Both the position numbers and the translations under genes were made by a program. Shown piece by piece: positions 1 through 43,698 of a stretch of DNA of 64,000 nucleotides. The notes beneath the pieces are model-generated. The model did not search any database, was not told the DNA's origin, and saw nothing but the letters and a program-made list of their open reading frames with translations. Source of the stretch: a virus (Duplodnaviria > Caudoviricetes); IMG/VR virus record IMGVR_UViG_3300037067_011041, positions 1 through 64,000 of that record; one strand, 5' to 3'. The first letter of the stretch is position 1; each line of letters opens with the position of its first letter.

Positions 1-1
1 G

Positions 2-35
2 CGAACGGCCGACGAAACCGCCACCCGCAAGAGGG
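2..35 (+). repeat. 34-bp leader repeat, copy 1 (CGAACGGCCGACGAAACCGCCACCCGCAAGAGGG)
   Basis: Identical to 764-797; both copies end in GAGGG a few nt before an ATG. Confidence 0.9.
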
Positions 36-42
36 TATTCCG

Positions 43-186
43 ATGGTAGGGTTTATTCTGAAACGTCACGCGATAACGAATTTTCGGGAATTGCGGGCCA
101 TCGGTGGGATTAGGCTGGTTGTAGCGGTTCTCCTGGCAAAGCCGGGAACTCCGTTTCTGACGGTTTTTACTTCTGTGTGCCGTTGA
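43..186 (+). CDS. small hypothetical protein (47 aa, MVGFILKRH...)
   Basis: Hand-translated ORF directly after the leader repeat and its GAGGG RBS-like site; below the ORF-track cutoff. Confidence 0.45.
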   Translation: MVGFILKRHAITNFRELRAIGGIRLVVAVLLAKPGTPFLTVFTSVCR

Positions 187-242
187 ACGATCGTGACGAT
201 TGATCCGATAATTCCACCTGAAGCGATTGGAGCGACTGTATC

Positions 243-461
243 ATGAAAACCAACGAAATCAACTGGAACGATTTTGCCGATTGTGTCGAGAATGAGGATG
301 GTGCGGCCGATATGCTTTGTGACCTTTTGACCGAATGTGACCCCTGTCCGGTCTGCGGCTACAATTACGATTGTGCCGATTGTATCGGTGACGCCTTCGA
401 TATCGATTTTGACGATCTTGTCGACGATGACGATGCCGATTTTGACGATCTTGACGGGTGA
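243..461 (+). CDS. very acidic Cys-rich small protein (possible DNA mimic)
   Basis: GGAG RBS upstream; 25 D/E, 1 K, 0 R, 7 C in 72 aa. Confidence 0.7.
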   Translation: MKTNEINWNDFADCVENEDGAADMLCDLLTECDPCPVCGYNYDCADCIGDAFDIDFDDLVDDDDADFDDLDG

Positions 462-699
462 CGTCGTCAGCGGGCCAGCGGGCCAGCGGGCCAGCGGGCC
501 AGCGGGCCAGCGGGCCAGCGGGCCAGCGGGCCAGCGGGTGACGTCGTCAGCGGGCCAGCGGGCCAGCGGGTGACGTCGTCAGCGGGTGACGTCGTCAGCG
601 GGCCGGAGGCCAGCGGGCCGGAGGCCAGCGGGCCGGAGGCCAGCGGGTGACGTCGTCAGCGGGCCGGAGGCCAGCGGGTGACGTCGTCAGCGGGCCGGA
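456..699 (+). repeat. modular tandem array 1 of blocks A=GGGCCAGC, B=GGGCCGGAGGCCAGC, C=GGGTGACGTCGTCAGC
   Basis: Parsed as C A8 C A2 C C B3 C B C + partial B. Confidence 0.95.
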
Positions 700-719
700 A
701 AATATTTCCGGAATTCCGT

Positions 720-747
720 TTGACTTTCGTGCGGGCGCATGCATACT
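720..747 (+). promoter_or_regulatory. sigma70-like early promoter TTGACT-N16-CATACT
   Basis: Same architecture as five other promoters in the window; lies upstream of leader repeat copy 2. Confidence 0.7.
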
Positions 748-763
748 TCAATTGACGGCCGAA

Positions 764-797
764 CGAACGGCCGACGAAACCGCCACCCGCAAGAGGG
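764..797 (+). repeat. 34-bp leader repeat, copy 2
   Basis: Identical to 2-35. Confidence 0.9.
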
Positions 798-805
798 AGA
801 ACGAA

Positions 806-982
806 ATGACCGTCATGACCGATACAACCGGCAAGGACCATGAAATCCATGCGATCGGCAACGTGGTCACACTCCGAAAAATCGGCTGGACCGTCAAAGC
901 CGTCACAACCGAAACGACCGTCAAAGTCGCCAAAGTCCCTACACCCGAAACCGAATGGGACGCCGTATTCGGCCGCCGGTAA
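806..982 (+). CDS. small hypothetical protein (58 aa, MTVMTDTTGK...)
   Basis: GGGAG RBS then ATG at 806, within ORF 647..982. Confidence 0.7.
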   Translation: MTVMTDTTGKDHEIHAIGNVVTLRKIGWTVKAVTTETTVKVAKVPTPETEWDAVFGRR

Positions 983-1007
983 AATCCGCACAACTAGGAA
1001 AATCGCC

Positions 1008-1112
1008 ATGACCCCTACAACCGTCACAACCGCCATAATCCCTCTTTCCCTCCTTTGGTGGTCCTGCCGTCAATTTGCGAACGGCCGGACGTGGACAGCA
1101 CAATCCCTCTAA
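1008..1112 (+). CDS. small hydrophobic hypothetical protein (34 aa)
   Basis: AGGA upstream of ATG 1008; C-terminal part of ORF 840..1112. Confidence 0.4.
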   Translation: MTPTTVTTAIIPLSLLWWSCRQFANGRTWTAQSL

Positions 1113-1171
1113 CCGGAGCAACCGGATGATTAGGGCGCCGCCCGTACAATCCTCACAAAGTGAATATGCTG

Positions 1172-1196
1172 AGCCCCTCGCAAGAGGGGCTATTTC
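1172..1196 (+). terminator. hairpin terminator AGCCCCTC-GCAA-GAGGGGCT
   Basis: 8-bp stem, GNRA loop, short ATTT tail. Confidence 0.6.
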
Positions 1197-1242
1197 ATGC
1201 GCCGAAAACGAGGTGCGATTGTAACGATTGCGCCGAATAATT

Positions 1243-1538
1243 CGTCGTCAGCGGGCCGGAGGCCAGCGGGCCGGAGGCCAGCGGGCCGGAGGCCAGCGGG
1301 TGACGTCGTCAGCGGGCCGGAGGCCAGCGGGTGACGTCGTCAGCGGGCCAGCGGGCCAGCGGGCCAGCGGGCCGGAGGCCAGCGGGTGACGTCGTCAGCG
1401 GGTGACGTCGTCAGCGGGTGACGTCGTCAGCGGGCCGGAGGCCAGCGGGCCGGAGGCCAGCGGGCCAGCGGGTGACGTCGTCAGCGGGCCAGCGGGCCAG
1501 CGGGCCAGCGGGCCAGCGGGCCAGCGGGCCAGCGGGTG
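1243..1538 (+). repeat. modular tandem array 2 (same A/B/C blocks)
   Basis: Parsed as partial C, B3 C B C A3 B C3 B2 A C A6. Confidence 0.95.
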
Positions 1539-1934
1539 CCGACTCCCTACAACCCGCAAACCCGCCCGAATCGGTGCAATAGTGTACATACGTTTTATTT
1601 GCATAGGTGCGCCCCCTCACCGGAGGTAGACTCCGGAATTCCGGCGGATAATCGGAACGATTGACGTAAACCCTTTGACCGTAACAAGTTGAATGGCCTG
1701 TACCCCCTAGTGGCGGGGTGGTTGACGTAAACCCTTTATACGGAACAAGTTGCGTAAAACCCCCCACCGGAGATATTGTCAAATACCTCCGAAGTAGTAG
1801 AATCGATAAGTCTATACGTGGCCGGTATTTACGGAATTCCCCCCACCGGAGGTATTCGATACCCCCTCCTAGTAGTCCTTGGGGGTGTCATCGGCCCACT
1901 TGGGGGATGTACCCCCCATGACTACTAGCGAAAT

Positions 1935-2115
1935 CACCGGAATGGCGCACACGTTCCGTCCCCTCCGGTGGGGGGCGAGCAGACGCAAGTCGTTTGTCGG
2001 TATAAACATAACGATAGGTAAAAACCCCAGCACCGGAACCGGAGCTACAAAAGAGTTCCCCAAGAAAATCGTGCAAAGTGTCATATTTAGTATAGGCCCG
2101 TTTTTCCGACTCCGG
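1935..2115 (+). repeat. dispersed ~180-bp element, copy 1 (copy 2 at 42410-42587)
   Basis: Six collinear conserved blocks, including identical 20-mer and 31-mer, at near-constant offset. Confidence 0.9.
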
Positions 2116-3213
2116 CGCACGACCGATATAGTCGTCAGTCCCCACCCTGGAGGGGGCATGCGATTGGACGTGTTCTACCGCATTTATCGGCAGATCCCGT
2201 CCTGTCACATGTATCGATCGTGACGGATATATCGATCGTGACACCTGTACTGGTAGGCTAGCGGGTAGCGGGTGCACTAATTGTAGTGATTATACGTACA
2301 GTACAATCTGCGTCGTCACAACCCGCACAGTTACTACAATCAATATCCTCGTCATCATCGATACAATCGGCATACCCGCCATAACCATACCATCCAATTC
2401 CCTTGCTACAAGAGCGCTAACCCCTACCATCCATGCAACCAATTGCACTGCATATAGGGGTCATGGCAGGTATGCGGGTTGTAACGATTGTGACCATTGT
2501 GTCACATGTACGGACACCCCCCAGTAGAGTGAGATCAGATTGATACCACCCCGATCGGGTGGTGTAGTCATATTGACGACACCCGCTACAACCCCACCCA
2601 CCCGAATGGGGTATGTATCGAAACGATACACCAGTACGATTGTATGGTATGTATCGATTGTATTTGTTGGTGTGGTTGTGTGGATCTTGTGTGTTGGATG
2701 AATTGGATATCGAGTAGGGATGGTAGCGGGTGGGGTGGTTGTATCGGTGGTAGGGGTGGGTCTAATTGTAGCGAGTGTGAGGGTCGTAGGGATTGGCGGT
2801 CCGTCGCGCCCTTTCGACTGTCCGCTGCCTATTTTCTAAGCGTTGACGCGTCAAGATGTCGTAAGTCGTTATACAGTAAGAGGTTATGACGAGCCCGAGA
2901 ACGCCTAAAGAGTGAGCAACCAGCCCGCTTCCGTGCATGAACCCACCAGCCACAATAATGACCGGCCGGTCACCGAGAAATCACACGGTCAAACCACCCA
3001 AAAGAGTGTATCATAACGATACACTCCCCCAGGAAGAGGGGCAGGTGGTAGGTCAGGAATATGACCGGCCAGTCATAAACGCAAATTGAGTCATGCGAAG
3101 GATTTACGCCGATCCGAGGACGCCAGCGGGTGTCGAAGAATTCCACGCGGCCAAGCGGGTGGTTGACGCGTCAGGGCCGGTTGTGACTATTTTGACGATT
3201 TTTCCGGATTTTA

Positions 3214-3251
3214 CGGGAAATTTCCCCTATTTTGGCTACAATAGGTGTAGA
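3214..3251 (+). promoter_or_regulatory. phage promoter class II: CGGGAAATT-N11-GGCTACAATAGGTGTAGA
   Basis: Same motif and spacing at 42653-42690 (+) and 42221-42258 (-); sits at the head of the late operon. Confidence 0.75.
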
Positions 3252-3266
3252 AGGAATGATTTCAAT

Positions 3267-3779
3267 ATGCAGTGCGAGTATGTCACATCCGTTGGTCAGT
3301 GCAGCAAGCAAGCGACTCCGCCGAGTCGTTTTTGCGACGCTCATTCCGCGACCAACGCGGAGCGCGTAATCAATCAATACCGGATTACCAACTCGCTTCT
3401 TGGCGACCCGATCGACCGGCATGCTCGTGCCAACGAGATCAAGTCGATTCACACCGAGATCGCCATTCTCCGCTCCCTGCTCGAACGCAGGATCAACCAG
3501 TGCGAGACCGAAGCCGACGTCGTCGCAAACACGGCCGTCTTCCAATCCTTGGCCCTGGCAATTGACAAACTGGCCACCTCCTGCCACACGATGGACGTGA
3601 AACTGGGCAACTCGCTCAGCAAGCAGGCAGTCATGAGCCTCGCTCAGAAACTCATTGGAATCATCGACGCCAACGTGCGACCGCTTGCGAACACGACGCC
3701 GTCCACCGAACTGGTCGACGAAACGATCGAGAACATCGGACTGCAAATCGCCTCAGCAATTGCCGCACAAGAGAACTAA
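3267..3779 (+). CDS. probable terminase small subunit (N-terminal Cys/His Zn motif, helical C-terminus)
   Basis: First gene of the late region; C-x7-C-x9-C-x2-H then helical EIAILRSLL segment; positional inference. Confidence 0.5.
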   Translation: MQCEYVTSVGQCSKQATPPSRFCDAHSATNAERVINQYRITNSLLGDPIDRHARANEIKSIHTEIAILRSLLERRINQCETEADVVANTAVFQSLALAIDKLATSCHTMDVKLGNSLSKQAVMSLAQKLIGIIDANVRPLANTTPSTELVDETIENIGLQIASAIAAQEN

Positions 3780-3801
3780 ACCCAAACGAAAAGGTGCTAC
3801 A

Positions 3802-4005
3802 ATGCAAACTGTTGTCGAAACCAAGTCCGTTCTCGCCTCGAAAATGGTGTGGCTGAACCTCGTGACCCTCGCCGCCGGTATTGCCGGGTATGTGGCTGGT
3901 GCCGAAGTCATGCAGGACTATGCTTCCGTCGTCGCCATCGCCGTCGCGGTGCAAGGCGCCCTCAACATCGTGCTGCGGTTCCTCACGACCCAGCCGATCA
4001 ACTAG
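3802..4005 (+). CDS. holin-like two-TM membrane protein
   Basis: KSVLASKMVWLN...NIVLRFLTTQPI pattern typical of small phage holins; two hydrophobic segments. Confidence 0.6.
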   Translation: MQTVVETKSVLASKMVWLNLVTLAAGIAGYVAGAEVMQDYASVVAIAVAVQGALNIVLRFLTTQPIN

Positions 4006-4021
4006 CCAGAAACTCAAGCCC

Positions 4022-4054
4022 ATGAACGGCAGTTCACCATGAACTGCCGTTCAT
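4022..4054. terminator. perfect 15-bp hairpin ATGAACGGCAGTTCA-CCA-TGAACTGCCGTTCAT
   Basis: Perfect inverted repeat after the holin-like gene; no U-tract. Confidence 0.55.
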
Positions 4055-4196
4055 CATTCACCAAGGTTTAACATGCTTCGCCAACTTCGACTCCGCTTCC
4101 TGGACCTGCGACTCGCCATTCTCATGTGGCGAATCAACCGTCTGCTCAATCGGTACGAACGGCTCTGCAAACGCTACAACAGGCTTTCAGACTGAC

Positions 4197-4349
4197 ATGG
4201 ACAAAGAACAAGAAATCGCCCGACTTCGAGAACAAGTCGCGCAACACATGTACGCCGGGAACTACTACCTCGCTTCCCGATACCTGAGTCTCATCGAAGA
4301 TGTTGAACGTGACGGGCAAGACGGAGTCTGTGCCTGCAACCCGTACTAG
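4197..4349 (+). CDS. small hypothetical protein (MDKEQEIARL...)
   Basis: Hand-translated, packed between neighbouring short ORFs. Confidence 0.4.
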   Translation: MDKEQEIARLREQVAQHMYAGNYYLASRYLSLIEDVERDGQDGVCACNPY

Positions 4350-4359
4350 TCGGTGAACC

Positions 4360-4545
4360 ATGAACCAAGCTTTCTGCGAATGCGGACGCGAGTGTGAATG
4401 GCCGGAGAAGTCTCTTCAGGCCGTCTGCAAATGCGGAAAGATCTTGGACCCAATGACCCGCAGTGAGTTGATAATCGCACAACGAGTGCACTTTGAACGG
4501 CGTGCCTGGATTATTGTGCACCATCCTGACTGCTTCCGCCTCTGA
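4360..4545 (+). CDS. small Cys-rich hypothetical protein
   Basis: ORF track; CECG...CKCG. Confidence 0.45.
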   Translation: MNQAFCECGRECEWPEKSLQAVCKCGKILDPMTRSELIIAQRVHFERRAWIIVHHPDCFRL

Positions 4546-4554
4546 GGACCAATT

Positions 4555-5028
4555 TTGGAGACAAAGCGACCCGTCCCTCCAGAACATTGCGGTGAATTAT
4601 ACCTGCCTTGCGGACCTTGTGTTACCACTGAAACACACAAACGATGCAGCCGATGTGGAGAATGGCTCCTTCACGTTGAATTCGGCAGGTCAAAGAACAG
4701 GCCATTCGGCATAAAGGATCTATGCCGTCAGTGCGTGAAAAGCGAATCAATCAGTACGAAAGTACAAAGGGCAAACGCACTAATAAAACGAAAGTACGGC
4801 ATAACCTTGTCTGATTACGACAAGATGCTGGAAAAACAAAACGGCCAATGTGCCATTTGTGGCACGCGAAAAGTTCCTAACTGCGGACGTTTCGTTGTAG
4901 ACCATGACCACAGTAGCGGGAAAATACGCGGTTTGCTTTGTTCAAACTGCAACACCGGGCTTGGCTTGCTTGGCGACGACCCGCAAACCCTAGAAAGCGC
5001 CTTAACCTATCTGAGGAAACATACATGA
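4555..5028 (+). CDS. endonuclease VII-family (HNH-type) nuclease
   Basis: KYGIT...Q.G.CAIC...VDHDH.SGKIRGLLC.NCN.GLG motif. Confidence 0.9.
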   Translation: METKRPVPPEHCGELYLPCGPCVTTETHKRCSRCGEWLLHVEFGRSKNRPFGIKDLCRQCVKSESISTKVQRANALIKRKYGITLSDYDKMLEKQNGQCAICGTRKVPNCGRFVVDHDHSSGKIRGLLCSNCNTGLGLLGDDPQTLESALTYLRKHT

Positions 5029-5783: not shown

Positions 5784-7802
5784 ATGGACCGACGAACCGT
5801 CTTGAAGAACCTCGCTCTGTCTGCGAGCGCCCTTCTTCTGCCGCGATCTGTTCAGGCCGCGTTGAGAGACACTGTCTCGGACGTTGGCGACCAGTATGGC
5901 TGGAATGACGACCAGGAAAGTTTGAAGTCGTTCATTCGACGGCACCGATATCCGTTCGTTGCACAGCAAAATCAAGCAATCAGAGGCTCTGGAAAGGGCA
6001 AATCGGCCTTTCTGCACCTCGCTTTTGAGCGTGTGACGGGAAAACCGTACGTTCCGCACCGTCAAGGGGCCCCAGATTGTGTGTCGCAAGCCGCCGCACT
6101 CGGGGTAGACTTCCTTTCGGCCGTGCAAATCGTACTGAAACGAATGCCGCAGAGGTGGGTAGCCAAGGCCGCCACCGAGCCGATTTACGGTGGCTCACGT
6201 GTTGAGATCGGTAACCCGCGAGGCCCCGGATCGACCGGACACTGGGCCGCCGAATGGCTGGTCAAGTATGGAGTCCTCCTTCGACAGCAGTACCCTGGTG
6301 ACTTCGATTTCACCGTCTACGACGCCAAGAAGGCCGTTGCGATGGGGAATACGGGCTGTCCGGACGCCCTTGAGCCAATTGCGAAGCTTCATCCGGTCAA
6401 AGAGACGGCAATTTGCACGTCTTATGCCGACCTGTGCGACCTGATTTACAATGGTTCTCCCGTAATGGTGTGCTCGAACGTCGGCTTTGGCCCCACGGGC
6501 GGCGTCCCGCTGAAGAGAGACTCGCAAGGCTTCCTTACCCGCAAGCGACGCGGCTGGTCGCACGCCATGCTGTTCGCTGGCTATGACGATGAGTTTGAGC
6601 GTCCTGGCGCCTTGTGCTTCAATTCCTGGGGCTGCTTTGACGAGCAGACAGAAATCCTAACCGACCAAGGTTGGAAGCTTTTCAAAAATCTCAATCGAAC
6701 CGAGAAAGTGGCCACACTGAACAAGCAACATGAGTTGGAATATCAACTGCCAACTCAATATCACAGATATCCCTATGCTGGGCATCTTTGGCATTACAAA
6801 TCAAGAGACATCGATTTTGCGGTCACGCCGAATCACAATTTGTACTGTGCTACTCGCGGAAGCGATAAATGGGTGCACAAACGTGCTGACGAATGTCACA
6901 AAAGCGTCAAATTCAAGAAGAACGCAAAGAACACAAACCCAGATGTAAAATGGCATAATGTCGGAGGCACCCAAGTTGAAATGGATTTGTGGCTTGAATT
7001 TCTTGGCTACTGGCTGGCAGAAGGCTCAGCCAGTGAGAAGCAAGCCTGGAATAAAGGCAAAAAGTGGGGCTTTCGACGCGTAGTTTCAGTTGCTCAGAAA
7101 AAGAAACACAACAGAAAAACCATTTGGAAATGTCTTCAACGGCTTCCATTTAAGTTCACTAAGCATAGACGTCACTTTTCACACACACAAAAGTCCTCGC
7201 TGGTTCGTGAATTGATTCCATTCGGTTATTCCCATGAAAAGTACATTCCCGATTATGTGTGGCGATGTTCAGATCGACAGTTGAAAATCTTCTATGCCGC
7301 TCTAATGCGTGGCGACGGAACACAAAGCAAAGGGCCTACAGGAGTCAAGCGTGCCTACTATACGTCGTCCAAGCAACTGGCAAGTGATTTTCAACGCCTT
7401 CTCTTGCACTGCGGCCTGTGTGGAGATATTTCGTCTACCAACCGGGTTGGACGAAAGGCGGGAGAAAACAACACAACTCGACACATTGAATACCGGGTCG
7501 GAATAAAGGTCAAGGCTTTCGAGCAGGCAGTGAGATACACACCTATTTTACTGCCTTATGAAGGCGAAGTATTCTGTGTCTCCGTGCCAAATCGCACAAT
7601 ATACACTCGTCGCAACGGCCGCGCGGTTTGGATGGGTAACTCAGACTGGGTCACAGGGCCGACGAGAGGCCCGCAACCAGCAAGCACTTTTTGGATCGAC
7701 GCAACAACTGTCGACAGCATGCTGAGAGTCGGGGATTCCTTTGCGTTCAGTGCATACGTCGGGTTTCCGCGAGTAGTAATTTCACCCTATGTCCTTCACT
7801 AG
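5784..7802 (+). CDS. Tat-exported papain-like (C1) cysteine peptidase containing an intein
   Basis: DRRTVLK twin-arginine signal; Q-G-x3-C (QGAPDC), WSHAM and NSWG catalytic motifs. Confidence 0.85.
   Translation: MDRRTVLKNLALSASALLLPRSVQAALRDTVSDVGDQYGWNDDQESLKSFIRRHRYPFVAQQNQAIRGSGKGKSAFLHLAFERVTGKPYVPHRQGAPDCVSQAAALGVDFLSAVQIVLKRMPQRWVAKAATEPIYGGSRVEIGNPRGPGSTGHWAAEWLVKYGVLLRQQYPGDFDFTVYDAKKAVAMGNTGCPDALEPIAKLHPVKETAICTSYADLCDLIYNGSPVMVCSNVGFGPTGGVPLKRDSQGFLTRKRRGWSHAMLFAGYDDEFERPGALCFNSWGCFDEQTEILTDQGWKLFKNLNRTEKVATLNKQHELEYQLPTQYHRYPYAGHLWHYKSRDIDFAVTPNHNLYCATRGSDKWVHKRADECHKSVKFKKNAKNTNPDVKWHNVGGTQVEMDLWLEFLGYWLAEGSASEKQAWNKGKKWGFRRVVSVAQKKKHNRKTIWKCLQRLPFKFTKHRRHFSHTQKSSLVRELIPFGYSHEKYIPDYVWRCSDRQLKIFYAALMRGDGTQSKGPTGVKRAYYTSSKQLASDFQRLLLHCGLCGDISSTNRVGRKAGENNTTRHIEYRVGIKVKAFEQAVRYTPILLPYEGEVFCVSVPNRTIYTRRNGRAVWMGNSDWVTGPTRGPQPASTFWIDATTVDSMLRVGDSFAFSAYVGFPRVVISPYVLH
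6633..7640 (+). mobile_element. intein with LAGLIDADG homing endonuclease (336 aa)
   Basis: CFDEQTEILTDQGW N-terminus, TPNH block B, LGYWLAEGS and LMRGDG LAGLIDADG motifs, ...GRAVWMGN followed by +1 Ser. Confidence 0.92.
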
Positions 7803-10431: not shown

Positions 10432-10843
10432 TCCGTGGCCGTGGCATCAACACACCCGCTGCAACGTCAACAACGGCGAGTGCATTTGCGTGCTCCCCAG
10501 TGGACAGGAGTTGGAAGTCCCTGACAACGCCGTCGAAGTTGTGATCGAACCTGTGGAAAAGGGCCGAAGCGACGCAAAGGTGATTGCACAGGGGCGGATC
10601 TGGTCCAAGACATGGGGTCTGCTTGACTTGGAAGACCATCTGAAAAAGATGGAGATGCAGAAGGAAGAAGCCGACTTGCGAAAGCGGCAGGAAAAAGAAC
10701 GGAAGCGAAGAGAAAAGGAAGCAAGGGAAAGGACAGGGCCAAAGTTGGACCTGCTTGTTCACGATGGTAAGCTGGAATCCGAGCCAACGTTGGACCTGCT
10801 TGTTCACGATGGTAAGCTGGAATCCGAACCAACGTTGGACTGA
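10418..10843 (+). CDS. hypothetical protein with a C-terminal 15-aa duplication
   Basis: LDLLVHDGKLESEPT x2, encoded by a 45-bp tandem repeat at 10745-10840. Confidence 0.65.
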   Translation: MKIPNPWPWHQHTRCNVNNGECICVLPSGQELEVPDNAVEVVIEPVEKGRSDAKVIAQGRIWSKTWGLLDLEDHLKKMEMQKEEADLRKRQEKERKRREKEARERTGPKLDLLVHDGKLESEPTLDLLVHDGKLESEPTLD

Positions 10844-10857
10844 ACCACGAGAGACGC

Positions 10858-12519
10858 ATGGGACTGCTTACTGATTTTGGCGATGTGCTCCACCAGGGAC
10901 TGGTATCGCGCACCCTGAATACATGCAGTCGTTGGGTTCAACATCGCCGCATAATGGGCGAGCCCTTTCCCGGACCGTATAGCTTCAAGTACCACCCATG
11001 GTGCAAAGAAGTACATGACTCGTCCGCGTCTTTCAACACGATAATGAAGGCAGCCCAAATGGGGCTGACAGAAGTCGCCATCAATGTGGCATTCTTTACG
11101 GTAGACATCAAGAAACGAGATGTTTTGTATGTTCTGCCCACACAGTTGAATGCGAGCGACTTTAGCAAATCACGTTTCAATACTGCGTTGCTGCACAGTG
11201 ACTACCTCAAAGAGTTATTCACTGACACCAATACGGTGGGACTGAAACAGGCTGGCGGAGTCAACCTGTATATTCGCGGATCACGCGGCGACTCGAACCT
11301 GAAGTCAATTCCAGTTTCAGTTCTGGTACTTGACGAAGCAGACGAAATGGATCAGCGAGCTATTTGGCTTGCTCTTGAACGTCTGTCAGGTCAGTTGCAC
11401 AAGTTTGTGTTCTCGCTGAGCACACCAACTATTCCGCAATTCGGAATTCACAAACTGTACCTGCAAGGAACGCAGGAACACTTTTACTTCAAGTGTCCTC
11501 GATGTGGCCGTTCGACAGAGTTGATTTTTCCAGACTGCCTGGAGGTATGCGGAGAGTCAATCACTGACCCGGATGTCCGACGATCATTCTTGAAGTGCAA
11601 GGAATGCAAGCAAGAGATAAAGCACGAAGAGAAGCCTACGTTCCTGGCAAATGCGTTCTGGGAACCAACTGTGCATGTCGATGAAGACCACAGAAGCTTC
11701 TACGTCAACCAGATGTACTCCTACACTGTCACGCCCGCTGATTTGGCGTTGGCATATTTTCGGGGAGTCGGCGATGAAGCCGCCATGGTTGAATTTTTCA
11801 ACTCGAAGCAGGGCCTTCCTTATATTCCGGACGGAGGGCAAGTAACTGATGGAGAGCTTGAACACGCCATAAGGAACTATTTCAAAGAGAAACAGCGCCC
11901 GAATATCGGCACCGACCGGCTTATCGTTATGGGCGTCGACCAGGGCAAAATGAACAACGTGGTTGTTCTTGAGTTTCTGCTGGCTGGAAATGGAATTGAT
12001 TTGAACGCATCAGCCCACGCAAAGTTGCTGTGGGAAGGAAAATTGCCCGGAGACGACTTCAAAACTTTGGACCCGCTTATGCGGGAGTGGCAAGTTCGAG
12101 CGTGTGTCATTGACGCTGACCCACAAATCAATGATGCTCGTAGATTTGCCCGTAGATTTCCCGGTTACGTGTATCTTTGTCGGTACAGAAGAGGTGTCAC
12201 AGGCAAGGAAATACAATTGTCTGAGGAAGATGGCAGTGCACCTATCGTAACAGTTGATAGGACGAACTGGCTTGATGCCTCAATGGGTCGGTTTCATTCA
12301 GACCGCATCCACCTGCCAGCCGACACGTCACTGGAATTCAAAGATCACATCAAAGCGTTGGTAAGGACGTACGAAAAAGACGACCAAGGAAATTCAAAAG
12401 CTGTCTATCTGAGCACAGGGCCAGACCACTTTGCACACGCTTTGAATTACGCTGAAATCGCTCTACCTCTGGCCGCTGGTATCGTATCTGGCGGGGATGT
12501 AACGGACAAGGTAATCTAA
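10858..12519 (+). CDS. terL: terminase large subunit (lambda gpA-like)
   Basis: KAAQMGLTE Walker A-like, VLVLDEADEM Walker B, STPT, CPRC..CKEC, MGVDQG nuclease motif, DH.AHA. Confidence 0.92.
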   Translation: MGLLTDFGDVLHQGLVSRTLNTCSRWVQHRRIMGEPFPGPYSFKYHPWCKEVHDSSASFNTIMKAAQMGLTEVAINVAFFTVDIKKRDVLYVLPTQLNASDFSKSRFNTALLHSDYLKELFTDTNTVGLKQAGGVNLYIRGSRGDSNLKSIPVSVLVLDEADEMDQRAIWLALERLSGQLHKFVFSLSTPTIPQFGIHKLYLQGTQEHFYFKCPRCGRSTELIFPDCLEVCGESITDPDVRRSFLKCKECKQEIKHEEKPTFLANAFWEPTVHVDEDHRSFYVNQMYSYTVTPADLALAYFRGVGDEAAMVEFFNSKQGLPYIPDGGQVTDGELEHAIRNYFKEKQRPNIGTDRLIVMGVDQGKMNNVVVLEFLLAGNGIDLNASAHAKLLWEGKLPGDDFKTLDPLMREWQVRACVIDADPQINDARRFARRFPGYVYLCRYRRGVTGKEIQLSEEDGSAPIVTVDRTNWLDASMGRFHSDRIHLPADTSLEFKDHIKALVRTYEKDDQGNSKAVYLSTGPDHFAHALNYAEIALPLAAGIVSGGDVTDKVI

Positions 12520-12520
12520 T

Positions 12521-14383
12521 ATGGCTCGCGACGCTAAGTTCCTTACGGCTATTCGACACCCAGACTATCTCGAAGACGAGATGTACTGGTTCGATTGGCG
12601 TGACACCTATAATGGCGGTCCGAACTTCGTTCGACGGAACTTGAGGAAATTCAGCAACCGAGAAAGCAACGCTGATTTCAACACTCGTAAGTTCTACACT
12701 CCCATTCCGGCCCATGCCAAGGCAGCCGTGAATGATATTCGCAATTCAATTTTCCAGCGGCTTCGTGACGTTACTCGTCGAGGCGGCAGCGAGAATTACA
12801 TGCGTGCCGCAGCCGGTGAAATCGGCGGAGTGGATAACAAAGGTGCATCGATGCAATCGTTCCTTGGCATCGAGGTGCTCACCGAATTGCTTGTGATGGG
12901 CCGTTCCGGTGTCTATATCGACATGCCTGAGTTGGCTGGTCTGAGGACTATGGCCGATGAAGGGAATGCGCGCCCGTACTGCTACAAGTATGCTGTTGAA
13001 GACATTCTCTCGTGGGCCGTCGCCAAGCCGGAAGAGCCGGGCAATTTCACTGCTGTGTTGCTTCGAGATCGCGGCGTAGACTACAACCAGGGATTTGCCA
13101 ACGGCGCCTACCTTCCGAGCGGCGGCTTCAATCGATATCGGTTCATTTGGATCGACCCGTTTGACCGGACAGTAAAGATGCGGATGTTTGATGAGAATGA
13201 CAACCTCATCAATCTTCGCGGCGGCATCATCATGGATCGCGAAACGTTCAATGGAAATGTTGAATCTGATGCAGGCGTAATCCGACTCGAACTTGAGAGA
13301 ATTCCATTCACGATGCTTTCTATCGGTGGAAGTATTCTCAAGGACGTGTACAAGCATCAGGTCGCGTTGCTGAATTTGGTGTCGGCCGACGTGTCGTATG
13401 CTATCAAAGCAAACTTTCCAATTTACATCGAACAGCGTGATGTCAGGGCGGTGGGCAGCCACTTGAAGATCGGGTCCGTCGATGACGACGGCACCTCCAA
13501 TACATCAGACAATAGCGAAGTCGGCACAGAACAGCGTATGGGCATTTCCCATGGCCGGTTCTACGACCTTAAAGCCAACCCTCCAGGGTTCATCAATCCC
13601 AGTTCTGAACCGCTGGAAGCGTCCATGAAACTTCGTGAAGCCCTTGAGGATGAGATTCGTAAACTGGTGAATCTTGAAGTCCAGAACAAAACTGGACAGA
13701 GGGCTATCTCGGCCGAAGCCATGAAGCTGTCGGACCAGGGACTGGAAGCTGGTCTGTCCTACATCGGCCTTGTGTTGGAAAGCGCAGAGCGAGAGATCGC
13801 TGCCCACTGGGCCGCATACGAGAACAAAGATCCAGAGCAACGAAAAGTTGCCACAATCAAATACCCGGATCGGTACAGTCTGAAGAACGACGAAGACCGG
13901 ATCAAAGAAGCCAGCGAACTCGCGAAGCTGATGTTCACTGTGCCGGGTAAGGAAGTCAAGAAGGAAATCGCGAAAGCGATCGTCGCTTCTCTTCTGGCTG
14001 GAAAAGTCAACAACGCCACTCTTGATAAAATCTACAGGCAAATTGACGACGCCGGGTACGCAACGTCTGACCCAGAGACAATTCGTTCGGCGGTAGAGTC
14101 CGGCTTGTGTGGCGAAAAGACTGCTTCCATTGCCATGGGCTTCGATGATAACGAATACTTGCAGGCCAGGAAAGATCACATTGCGAGAGCGGAGGCAGTA
14201 GCAAAAGCGCAAGCTGCCGCCAAACCAGCCCCGAACATGGCCGCCAGAGGAGTTCCGGATCTTGATGATGACCCTGACTCTGGTGAAGATGAGCGTGAAG
14301 AAGCAAATGACACCACTTTGAGTGATGACAAGAACGAACCCGTGCGAGGCAAAGGTAAAAACCTCGATAAAGGAGACAGATAA
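12521..14383 (+). CDS. portal protein
   Basis: Follows terL; RHPDY...W...Y.GG...Y.R.ES pattern; 620 aa with acidic tail. Confidence 0.85.
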   Translation: MARDAKFLTAIRHPDYLEDEMYWFDWRDTYNGGPNFVRRNLRKFSNRESNADFNTRKFYTPIPAHAKAAVNDIRNSIFQRLRDVTRRGGSENYMRAAAGEIGGVDNKGASMQSFLGIEVLTELLVMGRSGVYIDMPELAGLRTMADEGNARPYCYKYAVEDILSWAVAKPEEPGNFTAVLLRDRGVDYNQGFANGAYLPSGGFNRYRFIWIDPFDRTVKMRMFDENDNLINLRGGIIMDRETFNGNVESDAGVIRLELERIPFTMLSIGGSILKDVYKHQVALLNLVSADVSYAIKANFPIYIEQRDVRAVGSHLKIGSVDDDGTSNTSDNSEVGTEQRMGISHGRFYDLKANPPGFINPSSEPLEASMKLREALEDEIRKLVNLEVQNKTGQRAISAEAMKLSDQGLEAGLSYIGLVLESAEREIAAHWAAYENKDPEQRKVATIKYPDRYSLKNDEDRIKEASELAKLMFTVPGKEVKKEIAKAIVASLLAGKVNNATLDKIYRQIDDAGYATSDPETIRSAVESGLCGEKTASIAMGFDDNEYLQARKDHIARAEAVAKAQAAAKPAPNMAARGVPDLDDDPDSGEDEREEANDTTLSDDKNEPVRGKGKNLDKGDR

Positions 14384-25718: not shown

Positions 25719-28700
25719 ATGGCCGAGATCACCCAGAAGCTAGGATTTGATGCTGGCGACGCCATCAGGAACTTGTCTTCCTTGACTGATGCTATTCTCA
25801 AAGCCAACTCGGCTATGACTAGCATGAAGTCGGCATCTAAAGGCGCTGCTGCTTTGGCCGCCGCTGAGAAGCAGATAGTCAAGACTAAGAATTCCGCCAA
25901 AGACTTCACCATTTCATGGCAGACGTTGGTTCGAGTTCTTGAGACCCAGCTTATTGTGCGAAGTCTCAACTTGGTGACCCAAGCCCTGCAAGATTCGGTT
26001 GAGCAGGCTCGTTTACTCGGGCTGGCAATCGAAGAAATTCGCACCATTGATGAAAAGGGGCGGGGCGCCGCCAGTCTGTCTGCTGACATCCTTGCTTTGT
26101 CTGATGCCATTGGTAAGACCCCTGTGGACGTCGCGGAAGGCGTTTATCAGACATTGTCCAACCAAGTAGTTGAGGCGGGTGAAGCTTTCAATTTCACATC
26201 CACTGCTGCCAAGCTGGCCGTAGTGACGGTAGCTGAGACCGGCGAAGCTGTAGACGCATTGTCGTCTATCATGAATTCGTACGGGTTGGAAGCGTCTGAG
26301 ACAGAGCGGATTGCCGGAACTTTGTTCCGTACAGTAGACTTGGGACGCTTGCGTCTTGGAGAGTTGGCGGACATTATTGGTCGTGTCACCCCAATCACAG
26401 CCCAACTGGGAATAACTTGGGAAGAGACTGCCGCTTCGATCGCCACCATGACTCAACAGGGCGTTCGAGCCGACACCGCCATCACGCAGTTGCGAGCGGT
26501 AATCACCCGCCTAATCAAGCCTACAGATGACGTCACAGCGATCTTCCATAAGTGGGGTGTTGTAGACGGCAAGCAAGCCATCGAGACATTCGGCGGCCTG
26601 CGAGGCGTTCTGGCAAAGTTGCAAGACGAAACAGGTAACAGTTCCGAAGAGATGGCGGAATTGTTGCGAAACGTCCGCGCCATTACCGGCGCGTTCGGCA
26701 TCATGGTTGACGGCGGAAAAACCGTCGAGTCCGTGCTGAGAGAAATTGAAGGCAGTTCCAACGCGGCCAATGTCGCATGGGAACAGTTCGCACAGTCTGA
26801 TGCACAGCGTCTGACTCAGTCTACTCAGGAATTCAGCAATCAGATAACACGCCTTGGACAAATAGGTCTTCCGGCTGTCGCTGGTTCTCTGGAAGCTGTA
26901 AACTACTTCCTTGAAGTGCAGGCTGACGGCTGGAGCACTTTGCTTGGCTTGTACAGTGAAGCAGAAAAATCGGCTCGCCTGTTTTCTATGACCATCGAGG
27001 CGGGCAATGATCGCGCTAGCCAACTGCAAAAAACTCTTGACGATGTTCAGAAGGGCGCCTACGATAATCTTCGTAAAGCTTCAAATCTGTATTACACTGA
27101 AGCCAATAGGAAAGAGCAGCAGCTTGCTCAAGTAAGAGCAAACTCGGTAAGACAGGCAACGGCCGTTCTTGAAGACGCTGCTGATTCCTTGACTGACTTT
27201 TACAAAGACAGCTTGAAGGGTGTCGAGCAGTTTGCCGATAAAGCTTCAGATCGTGTTAAGCAGGCATTCGAGAAAATCGCCGACGTTCAACGAGACGTTC
27301 AAGACCAGACTCTTGAATATCGCCTTGACAATGAAGAGGACGGTCTTCGCAGGCTTACCATTCTTGATGAAGAGTTTGCCAAAGCCCGCGAGGCTCGTAA
27401 CAGAGCGATCTCGAACATTGGCGCCGACCCATCATCGTTGGATGAAGCAGAGGCTGCCAATGCTAGGTTGGTAGACCTTGGAAAGCAGCGGGTGGCGCAG
27501 GCCAAGGAACTCGGCTACGAAGGACGACAGCTTGCTAGATACCAGGACGACGTTGTTAAGTCTGTGTCGGCCGGTGTTCCGATTCTGAAGTCATTCGCAG
27601 ATATTCAGAAGAGCGCTGAAGTGTCCGCGCGACAACAAGCGAAGGTTCTGGAGGACAACTTTGCAAGAACCGAGGCTATTGGAAAGCGAATCAAGGAGAT
27701 CTTCAAGGACGGTCTGATCGATCCAAAAGAGAAGGTGGAACTCGAAGCTCTTCGTATTGAGCAAGAGCGACTGAATGCCACCTCTAAAGAGGGCATGGAG
27801 ACTCTCAAAGCCTTTGGCCTCGATATCAACTTCAACAAGGTAGTCGATGGTCTCACCTTGGCATTAAACAAAGCCCAGAAGGATTGGGATGCCGAAGTAA
27901 AAAGAGCCGAGGCAGCCTTCCAACGGGCACTCATTCCGATCAAAGTCAAACTCGAACTCTCTGAGGGCGGGCTCCGCAAGCAAATCGCTGATGAGTTCAA
28001 TCTTGAGCAGTTTGAAGGTGAGACACTTGATTCGTTTGCCAGGAGAATTGATTCGTTTGCCGCCGACACTTTGGATGGGGTGCGAACGGGCTTCAATGAT
28101 ATTGCCATAGCAGAGTCGAAAGTGGCCGCTCCTCTGGCAGTGATAAACAGAAGCTTGAAGGAGATGCAGGCACTGACAGCGCAAAATCTGTCACAGGCGT
28201 TGCGCGAACAGCAGGCCGAGAATTCCTTTACCGTAGTACGCAGTCTTGAAGAGCGCCAACGTCTTGAGGCTCAGATCATTGAGGCTGCAAAGGCGGATAT
28301 CGCGGTAAACACACTGCTTGACCAAAAGTTCAGAGAGGCAAACACGCTTCTTCAACAGCGTGGCTCGCTTCAGGAAGGCACTATTGCGGCTCTTCGTACT
28401 CAGTATGATGAGGCTTTCAAAGCCGGTGAGATTACGAAGTCTCAGTTGAATTTGTACACAACGATGGCCGACGAAATCGCGGCCGTCGCTGAAAAGCTTC
28501 GGGCAAACAATGAGCTACGGGCTCAGATGCCAGAACAGACACAGGTTCTTCTTCTTGAGCAGTTGTCGGCCAAGCAAAATGAACTTGCGGCCCAGAAGAA
28601 GGTCGAGGCCCAAGTAACCGCCGAAATGTCTGGCGACTATGCCAGAATCAACAGCATGGCGGACGACTTGTCTGGCGCTACTCAAACTATTGGAGACAAC

Positions 28701-29198
28701 TCAGCTAACACAGCCGCCAGCACCGGCACAGCAGCCACTAACATGGGGCAAGTCAGTCTGTCGTCTGGTACTGCCGCTACAAATCTTAGTAGCGGGGCCA
28801 TGTCAGCCGCAGCAATGGCAGCCAATCTTGAACGAGCCGCAGCAGCAGCAGCCGCAGTTCAAGCCGCTGGAGGCAGAGGGGCCCTTACTGTGACCAACCC
28901 GTATGTCGGAGGAAACTACGCCGACGGCGGGCTAGTCAGAGGCAAGGACAGAACCTTAGTCTCGGCAGCAAATGACGAGATGATTGTAAACGCCAAGAGT
29001 TCACGTAGATTCTTCTCGGAACTCAACGCGATGAACCAAGGCAACCGACCTGTCTTCCGTGAACAGGGCGGCCCAGTCACCAATGTCGGTGACGTCAATG
29101 TCACGGTAAACGGTGGAGACTCCTCGCAGCAAACGGTGCGCGAGATCGGCCACGCTCTCCGTCGCCAGATTCAGCGTGGCAACATAAAGCTTCGATAA
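25719..29198 (+). CDS. tape measure protein (TP901-like core)
   Basis: 1159 aa, Ala-rich helical; G....EE..A.IAT.T..G....A.T.LR motif; YADGGLV C-terminus. Confidence 0.9.
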   Translation: MAEITQKLGFDAGDAIRNLSSLTDAILKANSAMTSMKSASKGAAALAAAEKQIVKTKNSAKDFTISWQTLVRVLETQLIVRSLNLVTQALQDSVEQARLLGLAIEEIRTIDEKGRGAASLSADILALSDAIGKTPVDVAEGVYQTLSNQVVEAGEAFNFTSTAAKLAVVTVAETGEAVDALSSIMNSYGLEASETERIAGTLFRTVDLGRLRLGELADIIGRVTPITAQLGITWEETAASIATMTQQGVRADTAITQLRAVITRLIKPTDDVTAIFHKWGVVDGKQAIETFGGLRGVLAKLQDETGNSSEEMAELLRNVRAITGAFGIMVDGGKTVESVLREIEGSSNAANVAWEQFAQSDAQRLTQSTQEFSNQITRLGQIGLPAVAGSLEAVNYFLEVQADGWSTLLGLYSEAEKSARLFSMTIEAGNDRASQLQKTLDDVQKGAYDNLRKASNLYYTEANRKEQQLAQVRANSVRQATAVLEDAADSLTDFYKDSLKGVEQFADKASDRVKQAFEKIADVQRDVQDQTLEYRLDNEEDGLRRLTILDEEFAKAREARNRAISNIGADPSSLDEAEAANARLVDLGKQRVAQAKELGYEGRQLARYQDDVVKSVSAGVPILKSFADIQKSAEVSARQQAKVLEDNFARTEAIGKRIKEIFKDGLIDPKEKVELEALRIEQERLNATSKEGMETLKAFGLDINFNKVVDGLTLALNKAQKDWDAEVKRAEAAFQRALIPIKVKLELSEGGLRKQIADEFNLEQFEGETLDSFARRIDSFAADTLDGVRTGFNDIAIAESKVAAPLAVINRSLKEMQALTAQNLSQALREQQAENSFTVVRSLEERQRLEAQIIEAAKADIAVNTLLDQKFREANTLLQQRGSLQEGTIAALRTQYDEAFKAGEITKSQLNLYTTMADEIAAVAEKLRANNELRAQMPEQTQVLLLEQLSAKQNELAAQKKVEAQVTAEMSGDYARINSMADDLSGATQTIGDNSANTAASTGTAATNMGQVSLSSGTAATNLSSGAMSAAAMAANLERAAAAAAAVQAAGGRGALTVTNPYVGGNYADGGLVRGKDRTLVSAANDEMIVNAKSSRRFFSELNAMNQGNRPVFREQGGPVTNVGDVNVTVNGGDSSQQTVREIGHALRRQIQRGNIKLR

Positions 29199-42262: not shown

Positions 42263-42317
42263 CTCGCCGGAATCTCGCCGGAATCTCGCCGGAATCTCGC
42301 CGGAATCTCGCCGGAAA
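42263..42317 (+). repeat. 11-bp tandem repeat CTCGCCGGAAT x5 (iteron-like)
   Basis: Four perfect copies plus one with a 1-nt change. Confidence 0.9.
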
Positions 42318-42587: not shown

Positions 42588-42652
42588 ACTCCGGAACAGT
42601 TCCCATCTCTGAACCTTGCCCTGGAAAATTCGTTTGAAAATCCGGCAGACGG

Positions 42653-42690
42653 CGGGAAATTCACGTCAAACCGGCTACAATAGGTGTAGA
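42653..42690 (+). promoter_or_regulatory. class II promoter driving the ParB/SSB operon
   Basis: CGGGAAATT-N11-GGCTACAATAGGTGTAGA. Confidence 0.75.
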
Positions 42691-42693
42691 GCG

Positions 42694-43698
42694 ATGAATA
42701 ACAACCTGCAAACCATCCCGATTCAACACATCAAACGGCCGAAGATTTCCCTCCGGCCGGTTCGGCGCAACTCGCCCGAGTATGCCGAATTAGTAGAGTC
42801 CATTCGGAAAGACGGTGTTCTTCAGCCAGTCCTTGTTCGTCCTTATTACTGTGTGGGTTGCCCACACAAGGAATGTATCAAGGAAGCCTGTGAATGCCGT
42901 AAGGAGAATGAAGACTATGATATGGTTGAGGGCTGGCACCGGTTAGAGGCGTCGAAAGAAGCAGGCAGACCTGACATTCCCGTAATGATTCGCGAGATGT
43001 CAGACGATGAAGTCTTGATCTTCCAGATCAAGTGCAACGCAATAAGACCGAAGACAGCAACGTTCGAGTACGCTCGCCGCCTCAAGAAATTGATGGAGAA
43101 CGGGTACACACTGGATCAGCTTAGCGCGTTGATCGATAAGAATCAGAAGTGGATCAGGGATCAACTTCAACTGAATCGATTATGCGAGGACGCAAGGGCG
43201 CCAGTAGAGCGAGGTGAGATCAGGATGAGTTCGGCTTTGGCATTGGCCAATCTTCCTGAAGACTTGCAGACAAAATTCATCGACGACGCGATCGCGATGA
43301 AGCCCGGCGAATTCAACGAAAGAGCCAAGGCCGCCTTACGAGATTTCAAGACCTTCTTACTCAATGAGCAACAGAAGAATAGAGAGATCGGCGCAACGGC
43401 GGTGCCCACACTGAGGGCAATCAACGTACTGAAACGTGAAGCGGTCAAACCAAAAGAAGCCCGCGCGATACTGAAAGCAATGAAAGCCAAGACGGCTCTT
43501 GATGGTTGGAACGCCGCCCTGGCCTGGGTATTCAAACTTGACCCCGTATCGGTCGAAAAGAGAAAAGCTGGATATCAGGAGAAAGAAAACAATGAAGCAG
43601 TAGCAACACAAGAAGAGTTTCGCGCTCTGAACAGAGAGATGATCCGTAAGTTTGTAATTCCTCAATCCGAATCTGGAGACTATCGAAATGGCAAATGA
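42694..43698 (+). CDS. ParB/Srx-like protein with HTH and a Cys-rich insertion
   Basis: LVESIRKDGVLQPVLVR...VEGWHRL.A. Confidence 0.85.
   Translation: MNNNLQTIPIQHIKRPKISLRPVRRNSPEYAELVESIRKDGVLQPVLVRPYYCVGCPHKECIKEACECRKENEDYDMVEGWHRLEASKEAGRPDIPVMIREMSDDEVLIFQIKCNAIRPKTATFEYARRLKKLMENGYTLDQLSALIDKNQKWIRDQLQLNRLCEDARAPVERGEIRMSSALALANLPEDLQTKFIDDAIAMKPGEFNERAKAALRDFKTFLLNEQQKNREIGATAVPTLRAINVLKREAVKPKEARAILKAMKAKTALDGWNAALAWVFKLDPVSVEKRKAGYQEKENNEAVATQEEFRALNREMIRKFVIPQSESGDYRNGK

Follow-up and report, generated by a model that had tools for sequence, protein, structure and literature searches.

Mosaic arrays of short repeats beside early promoters of an uncultured Caudoviricetes phage: candidate multi-copy binding or decoy sites

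Results

The stretch of DNA analysed here, referred to as the window, comprises bases 1-64000 of the 117,327-bp IMG/VR virus record IMGVR_UViG_3300037067_011041 (Duplodnaviria; Caudoviricetes), and the elements under study are two arrays of short tandem repeats that lie near its start. The record is rated complete by CheckV and is classed as linear in IMG/VR, and its gene content is that of a siphovirus-like phage. Both arrays are composed of three units, namely A (GGGCCAGC, 8 bp), B (GGGCCGGAGGCCAGC, 15 bp) and C (GGGTGACGTCGTCAGC, 16 bp), each of which opens with GGG and closes with CAGC, and all 43 units of arrays 1 and 2 are perfect. An original prediction, which had been made from the sequence before the present analysis, described two arrays of three blocks joined by about 44 co-oriented CAGCGGG motifs, and this description was borne out, the two arrays holding 44 such motifs; counted over the window, CAGCGGG occurs 52 times on the + strand and six times on the - strand. 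The end of array 1 (590-696) and the start of array 2 (1243-1349) share an exact identity of 107 bp. The coordinates of the features in the window are collected in Table 1.

A scan of the whole genome confined the large short-unit arrays to the region that runs from genome position 114.6 kb to 1.5 kb of the window. Within this region, a third array is located at 117149-117327 (A B C B C C B C B C B followed by a partial C, with the contig stopping inside this last unit), a mini-array of BBB at 114599-114643, and two degenerate copies at 115393-115420. Since array 3 is cut by the 3' end of the contig and a leader repeat is found at the contig start, what had been taken for a genome end carrying a dense signal is an assembly break within array 3. 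The leader at 2-35 implies that array 3 ends, and a lost promoter lies, just upstream, beyond the break, and the record appears to close on itself across a short gap that would contain one further promoter and what is missing of array 3. The unit order and copy number given here rest on a short-read metagenome assembly.

Table 1. Positions of the repeat arrays, promoter elements and genes in the window
Feature	Position	Strand	Description
Leader repeat	2-35	+	34 nt at contig start, identical to 764-797
Early open reading frame	243-461	+	72 aa, very acidic, Cys-rich; TGA stop within first unit of array 1
Array 1	456-691	+	C A8 C AA CC BBB C B C, 20 perfect units; partial B after (692-699)
UP-like element	695-717	+	AT-rich; palindromes CCGGAAAATATTTCCGG and CGGAATTCCG; also a weak terminator-like hairpin; recurs 5' of other early promoters
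Early promoter	720-747	+	TTGACT-N16-CATACT, member of ~10-copy family
Leader repeat	764-797	+	Identical to 2-35
Cargo open reading frame	806-982	+	58 aa
Hydrophobic open reading frame (candidate)	1008-1112	+	34 aa; read from the sequence
Intrinsic-terminator-like hairpin	1173-1198	+	GCCCCTC-gcaa-GAGGGGC, then TATTTCAT
Array 2	1253-1533 (1243-1541 with partials)	+	Partial C, BBBCBC AAA B CCC BB A C A6 (23 perfect units), partial C
Mini-array (TAGCGGG)x2	2259-2272	+	~45-70 nt 5' of conserved block CAACCCGCACAGTTACTACAA
Single copy resembling the B-to-C junction, GGACGCCAGCGGGTGTCG	3118-3135	+	Within family-conserved element 5' of 170-aa gene
170-aa conserved gene	3267-3779		First gene after untranslated zone; heads conserved downstream module
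Large terminase (TerL)	10858-12519		
Portal	12521-14383		
Tape measure	25719-29198		
ParB	42616-43698		ParB_N + HTH_ParB; genuine ParB by domains

The arrays are associated with a family of sigma-70-type promoters, TTGACTTTC...TATACTTCAA, of which about 10 copies were found in the genome, each with an AT-rich and partly palindromic UP-like element (containing AAATATTTCCGGAATTCC) directly 5' of it. Six complete copies lie on the + strand, in a series that spans from 112.7 kb over the contig break to position 720, and a seventh probably falls in the gap at the break. Small open reading frames (ORFs) without family matches follow the promoters of this family, and several encode acidic proteins. 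Array 1 and both mini-arrays, the BBB copies 5' of the promoter at 114669 and the degenerate copies 5' of the promoter at 115439, run directly into the UP-like element of a family promoter, and array 3 probably ends at such an element as well. The promoter at 115439 contains an inverted CCCGCTGG in its spacer. Neither ORF 806-982 nor ORF 243-461 yielded relatives in viral contigs or a Pfam or PHROG family. Some 10 promoter copies flank unrelated small ORFs, and the locus also has exact repeats (34 nt and 107 bp) and cargo that lacks relatives; the exact repeats and the non-conserved cargo fit an exchange of cassettes by homologous recombination, and the earlier suggestion that recombination shuffles the small genes is compatible with them. 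A coding reading of the arrays was rejected, the unit lengths of 8, 15 and 16 bp shifting the frame and the upstream ORF stopping in the first unit.

Homologs of the TerL protein are frequent in IMG/VR (53-87% identical), and the contigs of relatives that reach this region all carry modular short-unit arrays, mostly of different units. Examples are GGAGCCGGGCGGGT and GGAGCCGGGCGGAAGTCCAGCG followed by (GCCT)n in contig L015, units of the GGCGGGCGTGTGGAGCCCT type at the position of array 1 in L021, variants of GGAGCAGT in L046, and (CACAACCTG)x11 in L056. The near-complete and AT-richer genome G003 has about ten arrays, with arrays at both contig ends. In a tally made by eye on few arrays, six of six were immediately followed by an AT-rich stretch and a -35 box. 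Copy number differs between relatives, from 2-3 (L024/L025) to more than 20, as do the units themselves. One array of G003 (L067:607-757) is the reverse complement of another (7052-7290), both being located 5' of + strand promoters, which indicates that orientation is not a constant of the family. The position of the arrays is therefore conserved but neither their sequence nor their orientation, which argues that any action is probably exerted on duplex DNA. In the same genome, the -10 box of a TTGACTTTC promoter marks the start of the repeat (GTAAATG)x18 (L067 7290-7460), and the transcript would therefore start within the repeat.

Units bearing AGCGG were found in four of about 30 non-coding arrays of relatives, one of them on the other strand (L152), against a rough expectation of ~1.4; this recurrence is suggestive at most. 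Exact-unit searches did not yield a close relative sharing the units with which unit order could be compared: GGGTGACGTCGTCAGCGGG gave one match, in an unrelated viral contig, and the junction of B or A with C had no match in the metagenome contigs searched. Arrays of (GGGCCAGC)n are present in three other viral contigs, two of which represent one phage type, as compared with one contig each for control 8-mers of the same composition. Since the control 8-mers also form arrays, the recurrence of the A unit was not counted as evidence of a shared function. An unrelated type of viral contig (L010 2330-2780; L012 1380-2010, reverse strand) carries 45-80 copies of interleaved 8-bp modules, GGCCAGCG, GGCCATCA and GGCCACCA, about 200 bp 5' of terS-terL.

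Array 2 opens a zone of about 2 kb that lacks convincing genes, is rich in repeats and palindromes, and ends at the 170-aa gene. At the position aligned with the tandem TAGCGGG copies of this zone, L056, L137, L015 and other relatives hold large arrays of other units. About 130 nt 5' of the 170-aa gene, an element of the form GAATCCGAG-N7-9-GYGGGT (window 3100-3135) is kept in ten relatives, and in the present phage its second half is CCAGCGGGTG (at 3123), which is the array junction motif. The original prediction had drawn attention to extra AGCGGG copies downstream of the arrays; such copies are at chance level genome-wide, although the tandem pair at 2259-2272 and the copy at 3123 are notable by their location. 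Further conserved non-coding blocks of the zone, at 2318-2340, 2747-2775, 2843-2854 and 3163-3173, comprise ACAACCCGCACAGTTACTACAA, GGTGGTAGGGGTGGGTCTAATTGTAGCGA and two TTGACGCGTCA(A) palindromes, and a long imperfect inverted repeat pairs a C/A-rich left arm (2300-2450) with a G/T-rich right arm (2640-2780), the latter having the top G4Hunter-type scores of the region.

When the conserved 170-aa protein was used for searching, the assembly was found to end 0.15-2.6 kb 5' of its gene in 19 of 20 related contigs, and so the early region is systematically absent from public contigs. Several of these ends lie inside an array or a G-rich block, at many different homologous positions, and this scatter is more in line with repeats and strain variation than with a single fixed end of the DNA.

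The original prediction had read the co-oriented junctions as a polar signal resembling Chi; AGCGG is the Chi site of Bacillus subtilis. Outside the arrays, however, CAGCGGG is neither enriched nor skewed in the phage genome as a whole, with 17 copies on the + strand against a Markov expectation of 15.6 and 12 on the - strand against 11.6. A prediction of strand skew in the host was examined in two Planctomycetia metagenome-assembled genomes (MAGs) that hold the TerL of relatives and that represent a candidate host lineage, though perhaps not the true host. The motif is rarer there (2059 and 2811 copies) than its reversed control (3028 and 3344), and in a 379-kb sample 139 copies were observed against 161.5 expected. 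In this first sample, CAGCGGG was the most strand-heterogeneous 7-mer of its abundance class (99.9th percentile), which the coding strand did not explain. The heterogeneity was absent from independent sequence of 363 kb and 400 kb (18th and 13.5th percentile; 57th and 66th when pooled), and host strand skew was rejected because it did not replicate in independent sequence of the two MAGs. A repeat-protein gene of a Planctomycetia MAG (L087 12400-14500, G006:C4 32.4-34.5 kb; ...DGKMIDLGTLGG...INASGEVVG...) carries eight CAGCGGG on one strand within 2 kb, and accounts for part of the skew in the first sample.

A capacity to form G-quadruplexes (G4), the other property that had been ascribed to the arrays, was not supported. 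The pattern of at least four G3 runs with loops of 1-7 nt is present in the A-unit runs of arrays 1 and 2 only and does not occur in array 3, and the G4Hunter-type score of the arrays reaches a maximum of 0.88 (mean 0.59), the customary threshold being ~1.2. Among relatives, the arrays range from G-rich over C-rich to AT-rich, so that the pattern is not conserved. The units are made of small self-complementary blocks: there is a perfect 5-1-5 palindrome, TGACGTCGTCA, in unit C, and GGCC-GGA-GGCC in unit B. Owing to this composition, both strands of array 1 form hairpins well (z = -3.1 and -5.2), which would favour slippage and compete with G4 folding. Outside the arrays, GTGACGTC, GGAATTCC, CCGGAAT, GGCC, CCGG and GACGTC were neither enriched nor avoided, and a search of positions 1-5000 against Rfam gave no match beyond a sub-threshold DicF. 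The arrays do not have the build of replication-origin iterons (units of ~17-22 bp in helical phase, beside a rep gene and an AT-rich unwinding element), their units being 8, 15 and 16 bp long.

The 170-aa protein is conserved in the family (46 homolog clusters, 47-60% identity), with C3, C12, C23 and H26 invariant within a predicted N-terminal Cys/His beta-hairpin region that is followed by long helices. As a candidate small terminase it had no Pfam or PHROG match, and its AlphaFold model (pLDDT 76) had no fold match in PDB or BFVD. The nearest cultured relatives of TerL are the terminases of the SPO1, K and CP-51 types, to which it is distantly related (24-27% identity). Phages of these types package long terminal repeats (LTRs), for which the literature used here gives support in the kayviruses. 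From this distant relation and the gene layout, the region of the arrays probably lies in or beside an LTR.

Directly 5' of the TerL start, a 45-bp repeat (x2.3, 96% match) is present at 10738-10840, and relatives have coding-type repeats at the equivalent place. Primase, helicase and family-A polymerase genes and two tRNAs were also recognized in the genome. Between the primase gene and parB, about five perfect 11-bp repeats of CTCGCCGGAAT (x4.9) are found at 42263-42316, which by their sequence context appear to be an origin- or centromere-like site; CCGGAAT is common to this locus and to the UP-like element of the early promoters. The contigs of two TerL relatives, L072 (67%) and L073 (56%), belong to a Thermoguttaceae MAG and a Planctomycetia MAG, and their GC content matches that of the MAGs; the phage group probably infects Planctomycetes.

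Discussion

We tentatively favour the interpretation that the arrays are fast-evolving, minisatellite-like repeats of early-promoter cassettes, which provide a multi-copy binding or decoy platform on duplex DNA as well as homology for exchange. A cassette would consist, in this order, of an array, an AT-rich UP-like palindrome, a sigma-70 promoter of the TTGACTTTC type, the shared leader and a small cargo gene. Arrays would have grown out of one B-like element immediately 5' of the UP-like element, through slippage or unequal recombination, and would have spread together with their cassettes via homologous recombination; the degenerate single B-like copy at promoter 115439 and the three B units at promoter 114669 look like the unexpanded and early states of this process. 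The arrays would act on duplex DNA regardless of orientation, most likely as a multi-copy site or decoy to which a sequence-specific protein binds, and this protein would tune or time the early promoters relative to the late ones. A related single site, CCAGCGGGTG, is present in the conserved element ahead of the 170-aa gene, with which the conserved downstream module begins. Among the alternatives that the original prediction had listed, titration of a DNA-binding protein may likewise still apply. As a secondary role, they may serve as homology tracts that permit cassettes to be exchanged. This function is one that we infer rather than demonstrate.

Several observations weigh against a binding or decoy platform. 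The ribbon-helix-helix (RHH) family PF01402 and the Omega family PF07764 have no match in the genome, and HTH_3 appeared below the cut-off only, so no binder was found. ParB, the one clear sequence-specific DNA binder, was considered as a candidate, but it adjoins its own 11-bp repeats, and these would be the more natural site. Array 2 is not followed by a canonical early promoter. The existence of relatives with 2-3 copies (L024/L025) and of a dispensable analogue in kayviruses means that a selected function is not required, the promoter tally among relatives was made by eye on few arrays, and short-read assembly could smooth the perfection of the units or place them in a wrong order.

It is possible, if somewhat doubtful, that the arrays are neutral by-products, that is, hypermutable minisatellites generated by slippage and unequal crossing-over in a weakly constrained, recombination-prone intergenic zone, which supply incidental homology only; a purely neutral origin is nearly as likely as a binding or decoy platform. 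Differences in units between close relatives and copy numbers that vary from 2-3 to more than 20 are what such an origin would produce, the self-complementary blocks of the units would favour slipped hairpins (fold z -3.1 and -5.2), and control 8-mers of the same composition form arrays in viral contigs at a similar rate. Moreover, partial units flank the arrays, as is the case for the tandem repeats of Borgs (PMC9879509), and a kayvirus repeat has been lost without harm (PMC6445280). Neutrality accounts less readily for the recurrence of arrays directly 5' of promoters, at the same kinds of site, in relatives whose TerL identity goes down to ~65%, or for the maintenance at five genome sites of three modules that are not related by point mutation. 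The excess of AGCGG units in the arrays of relatives (four of ~30 against ~1.4 expected) and the conservation of a related motif as a single site also speak against it.

An unlikely alternative is that the arrays are cis-acting signals tied to an LTR, where they would mark a boundary or take part in packaging or in staged entry of the DNA; the analogues invoked for such signals are Repeat Region 3 of T5, which is its injection stop signal zone, the short-repeat arrays of T7 and the kayvirus repeat next to the LTR. The affiliation of TerL with the terminases of the SPO1, K and CP-51 types is consistent with this proposal, but an identity of just 24-27% makes for a distant link. The layout of small early genes, ~2 kb of untranslated repeats and palindromes, and a conserved module resembles that of T5 (10.1101/866236) and of kayviruses (PMC6445280). 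Support may also be seen in the 19 of 20 related contigs that end 0.15-2.6 kb 5' of the 170-aa gene and in the unrelated phage type whose 8-bp modular arrays lie ~200 bp 5' of terS-terL. On the other hand, related contigs start at many homologous positions and not at one nucleotide, attempts to identify the 170-aa protein as a small terminase failed, and the arrays sit between early genes and not solely at one boundary.

A more specific version of the binding platform, which we regard as improbable, is that the arrays are decoys that set a developmental timer. A family-conserved regulator would recognize the single site of the GAATCCGAG-N7-9-GYGGGT/CCAGCGGGTG type ahead of the 170-aa gene but would first have to fill the more than 55 array copies located 5' of the early promoters; by filling them it would shut down or tune the early cassettes, and its action at the single site would be delayed.

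The original proposal, in which the co-oriented motifs form a polar Chi-like signal to the host RecBCD/AddAB and/or a G-quadruplex tract, now appears very improbable. In its favour are the ~56 co-oriented CAGCGGG motifs of the three large arrays, the agreement of A-unit runs with a repeated G3-N5 pattern, and the recurrence of AGCGG in some arrays of relatives. These are countered by the lack of enrichment or skew outside the arrays and by the findings in MAGs of the candidate host lineage, where the motif is rarer than its reversed control and its strand heterogeneity could not be reproduced. Nor is the motif kept in relatives, most of which use other units, with the core on the opposite strand in L152 and an inverted array in G003. 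As for the G-quadruplex, the G4Hunter-type maximum of 0.88 falls short of 1.2, Watson-Crick hairpins compete with G4 folding, and relatives have C-rich or non-G arrays. Equally hard to sustain is a role at the RNA level, with arrays 1 and 3 transcribed as structured 3' untranslated regions that stabilize early mRNAs or sponge an RNA-binding protein: no terminator separates these arrays from the upstream stop codons, the predicted folding is strong and unit B can present GGA in a hairpin loop, but a terminator-like hairpin precedes array 2, the same array is found in G003 in either orientation, the units of relatives have no common RNA motif, and no Rfam match was obtained.

With respect to known systems, contiguous operator or centromere arrays bound by RHH proteins, such as those of pSM19035 Omega and of TP228 ParG-parH, consist of 7-10 or more contiguous heptad or 8-bp units (7-8 bp). 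The present arrays are similar in that contiguous short units lie directly 5' of promoters and would be read as duplex DNA in either orientation, but they differ in their mixed unit lengths, and no RHH/Omega-type protein was found in the genome. T4-type phages have repeated early-promoter stem-loop modules (PeSLs), which border unrelated small early genes of a hyperplastic region and serve as substrates for recombination. A PeSL is one element of ~50 bp, whereas the arrays described here are in tandem and their recombination is deduced from the repeats.

The closest documented analogue, as far as the comparison carries, would be the 35-bp repeat beside the LTR of kayvirus 812, whose copy number ranges between 2 and more than 20 and which the viable 812h1 lacks (PMC6445280). 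In kayvirus 812/K, as in the present phage, a non-coding tandem repeat lies by the early host-takeover genes, and TerL belongs to the same broad group; the kayvirus repeat is highly variable in copy number and disturbs read coverage and assembly. The kayvirus has one 35-bp unit at one site, whereas modules of 8, 15 and 16 bp are interleaved at five sites here, and the LTR of this phage is putative. The left terminal repeat of T5 contains untranslated Repeat Regions 1-3, an injection stop signal and nine tandem DRD copies (10.1101/866236). The sequence and order of the T5 repeats are conserved among T5-like phages, and they include DnaA boxes; in contrast, the units studied here are not conserved, and genes of the A1/A2 type were not recognized among the early ORFs scanned. 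Borg repeats (PMC9879509) resemble these arrays in that their units are perfect, partial copies flank them, they are born rapidly and independently, their intergenic unit lengths are not multiples of three and contigs end in them. Borg arrays are single-unit, A-rich and distributed genome-wide, while those of the phage have a high GC content, are modular and occur in the early promoter region only. No described counterpart was found either for a three-module mosaic that is reused at five sites or for its tight coupling with early promoters throughout a phage family.

Should the arrays bind a regulator, the phage would have in them a simple and quickly evolvable means to tune or time its host-takeover genes, and if the decoy timer were true, array length would be a setting of infection timing that can evolve rapidly. 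Even if the arrays are neutral, they mark the boundary between a hyperplastic early region and a conserved downstream module in a widespread group of uncultured phages.

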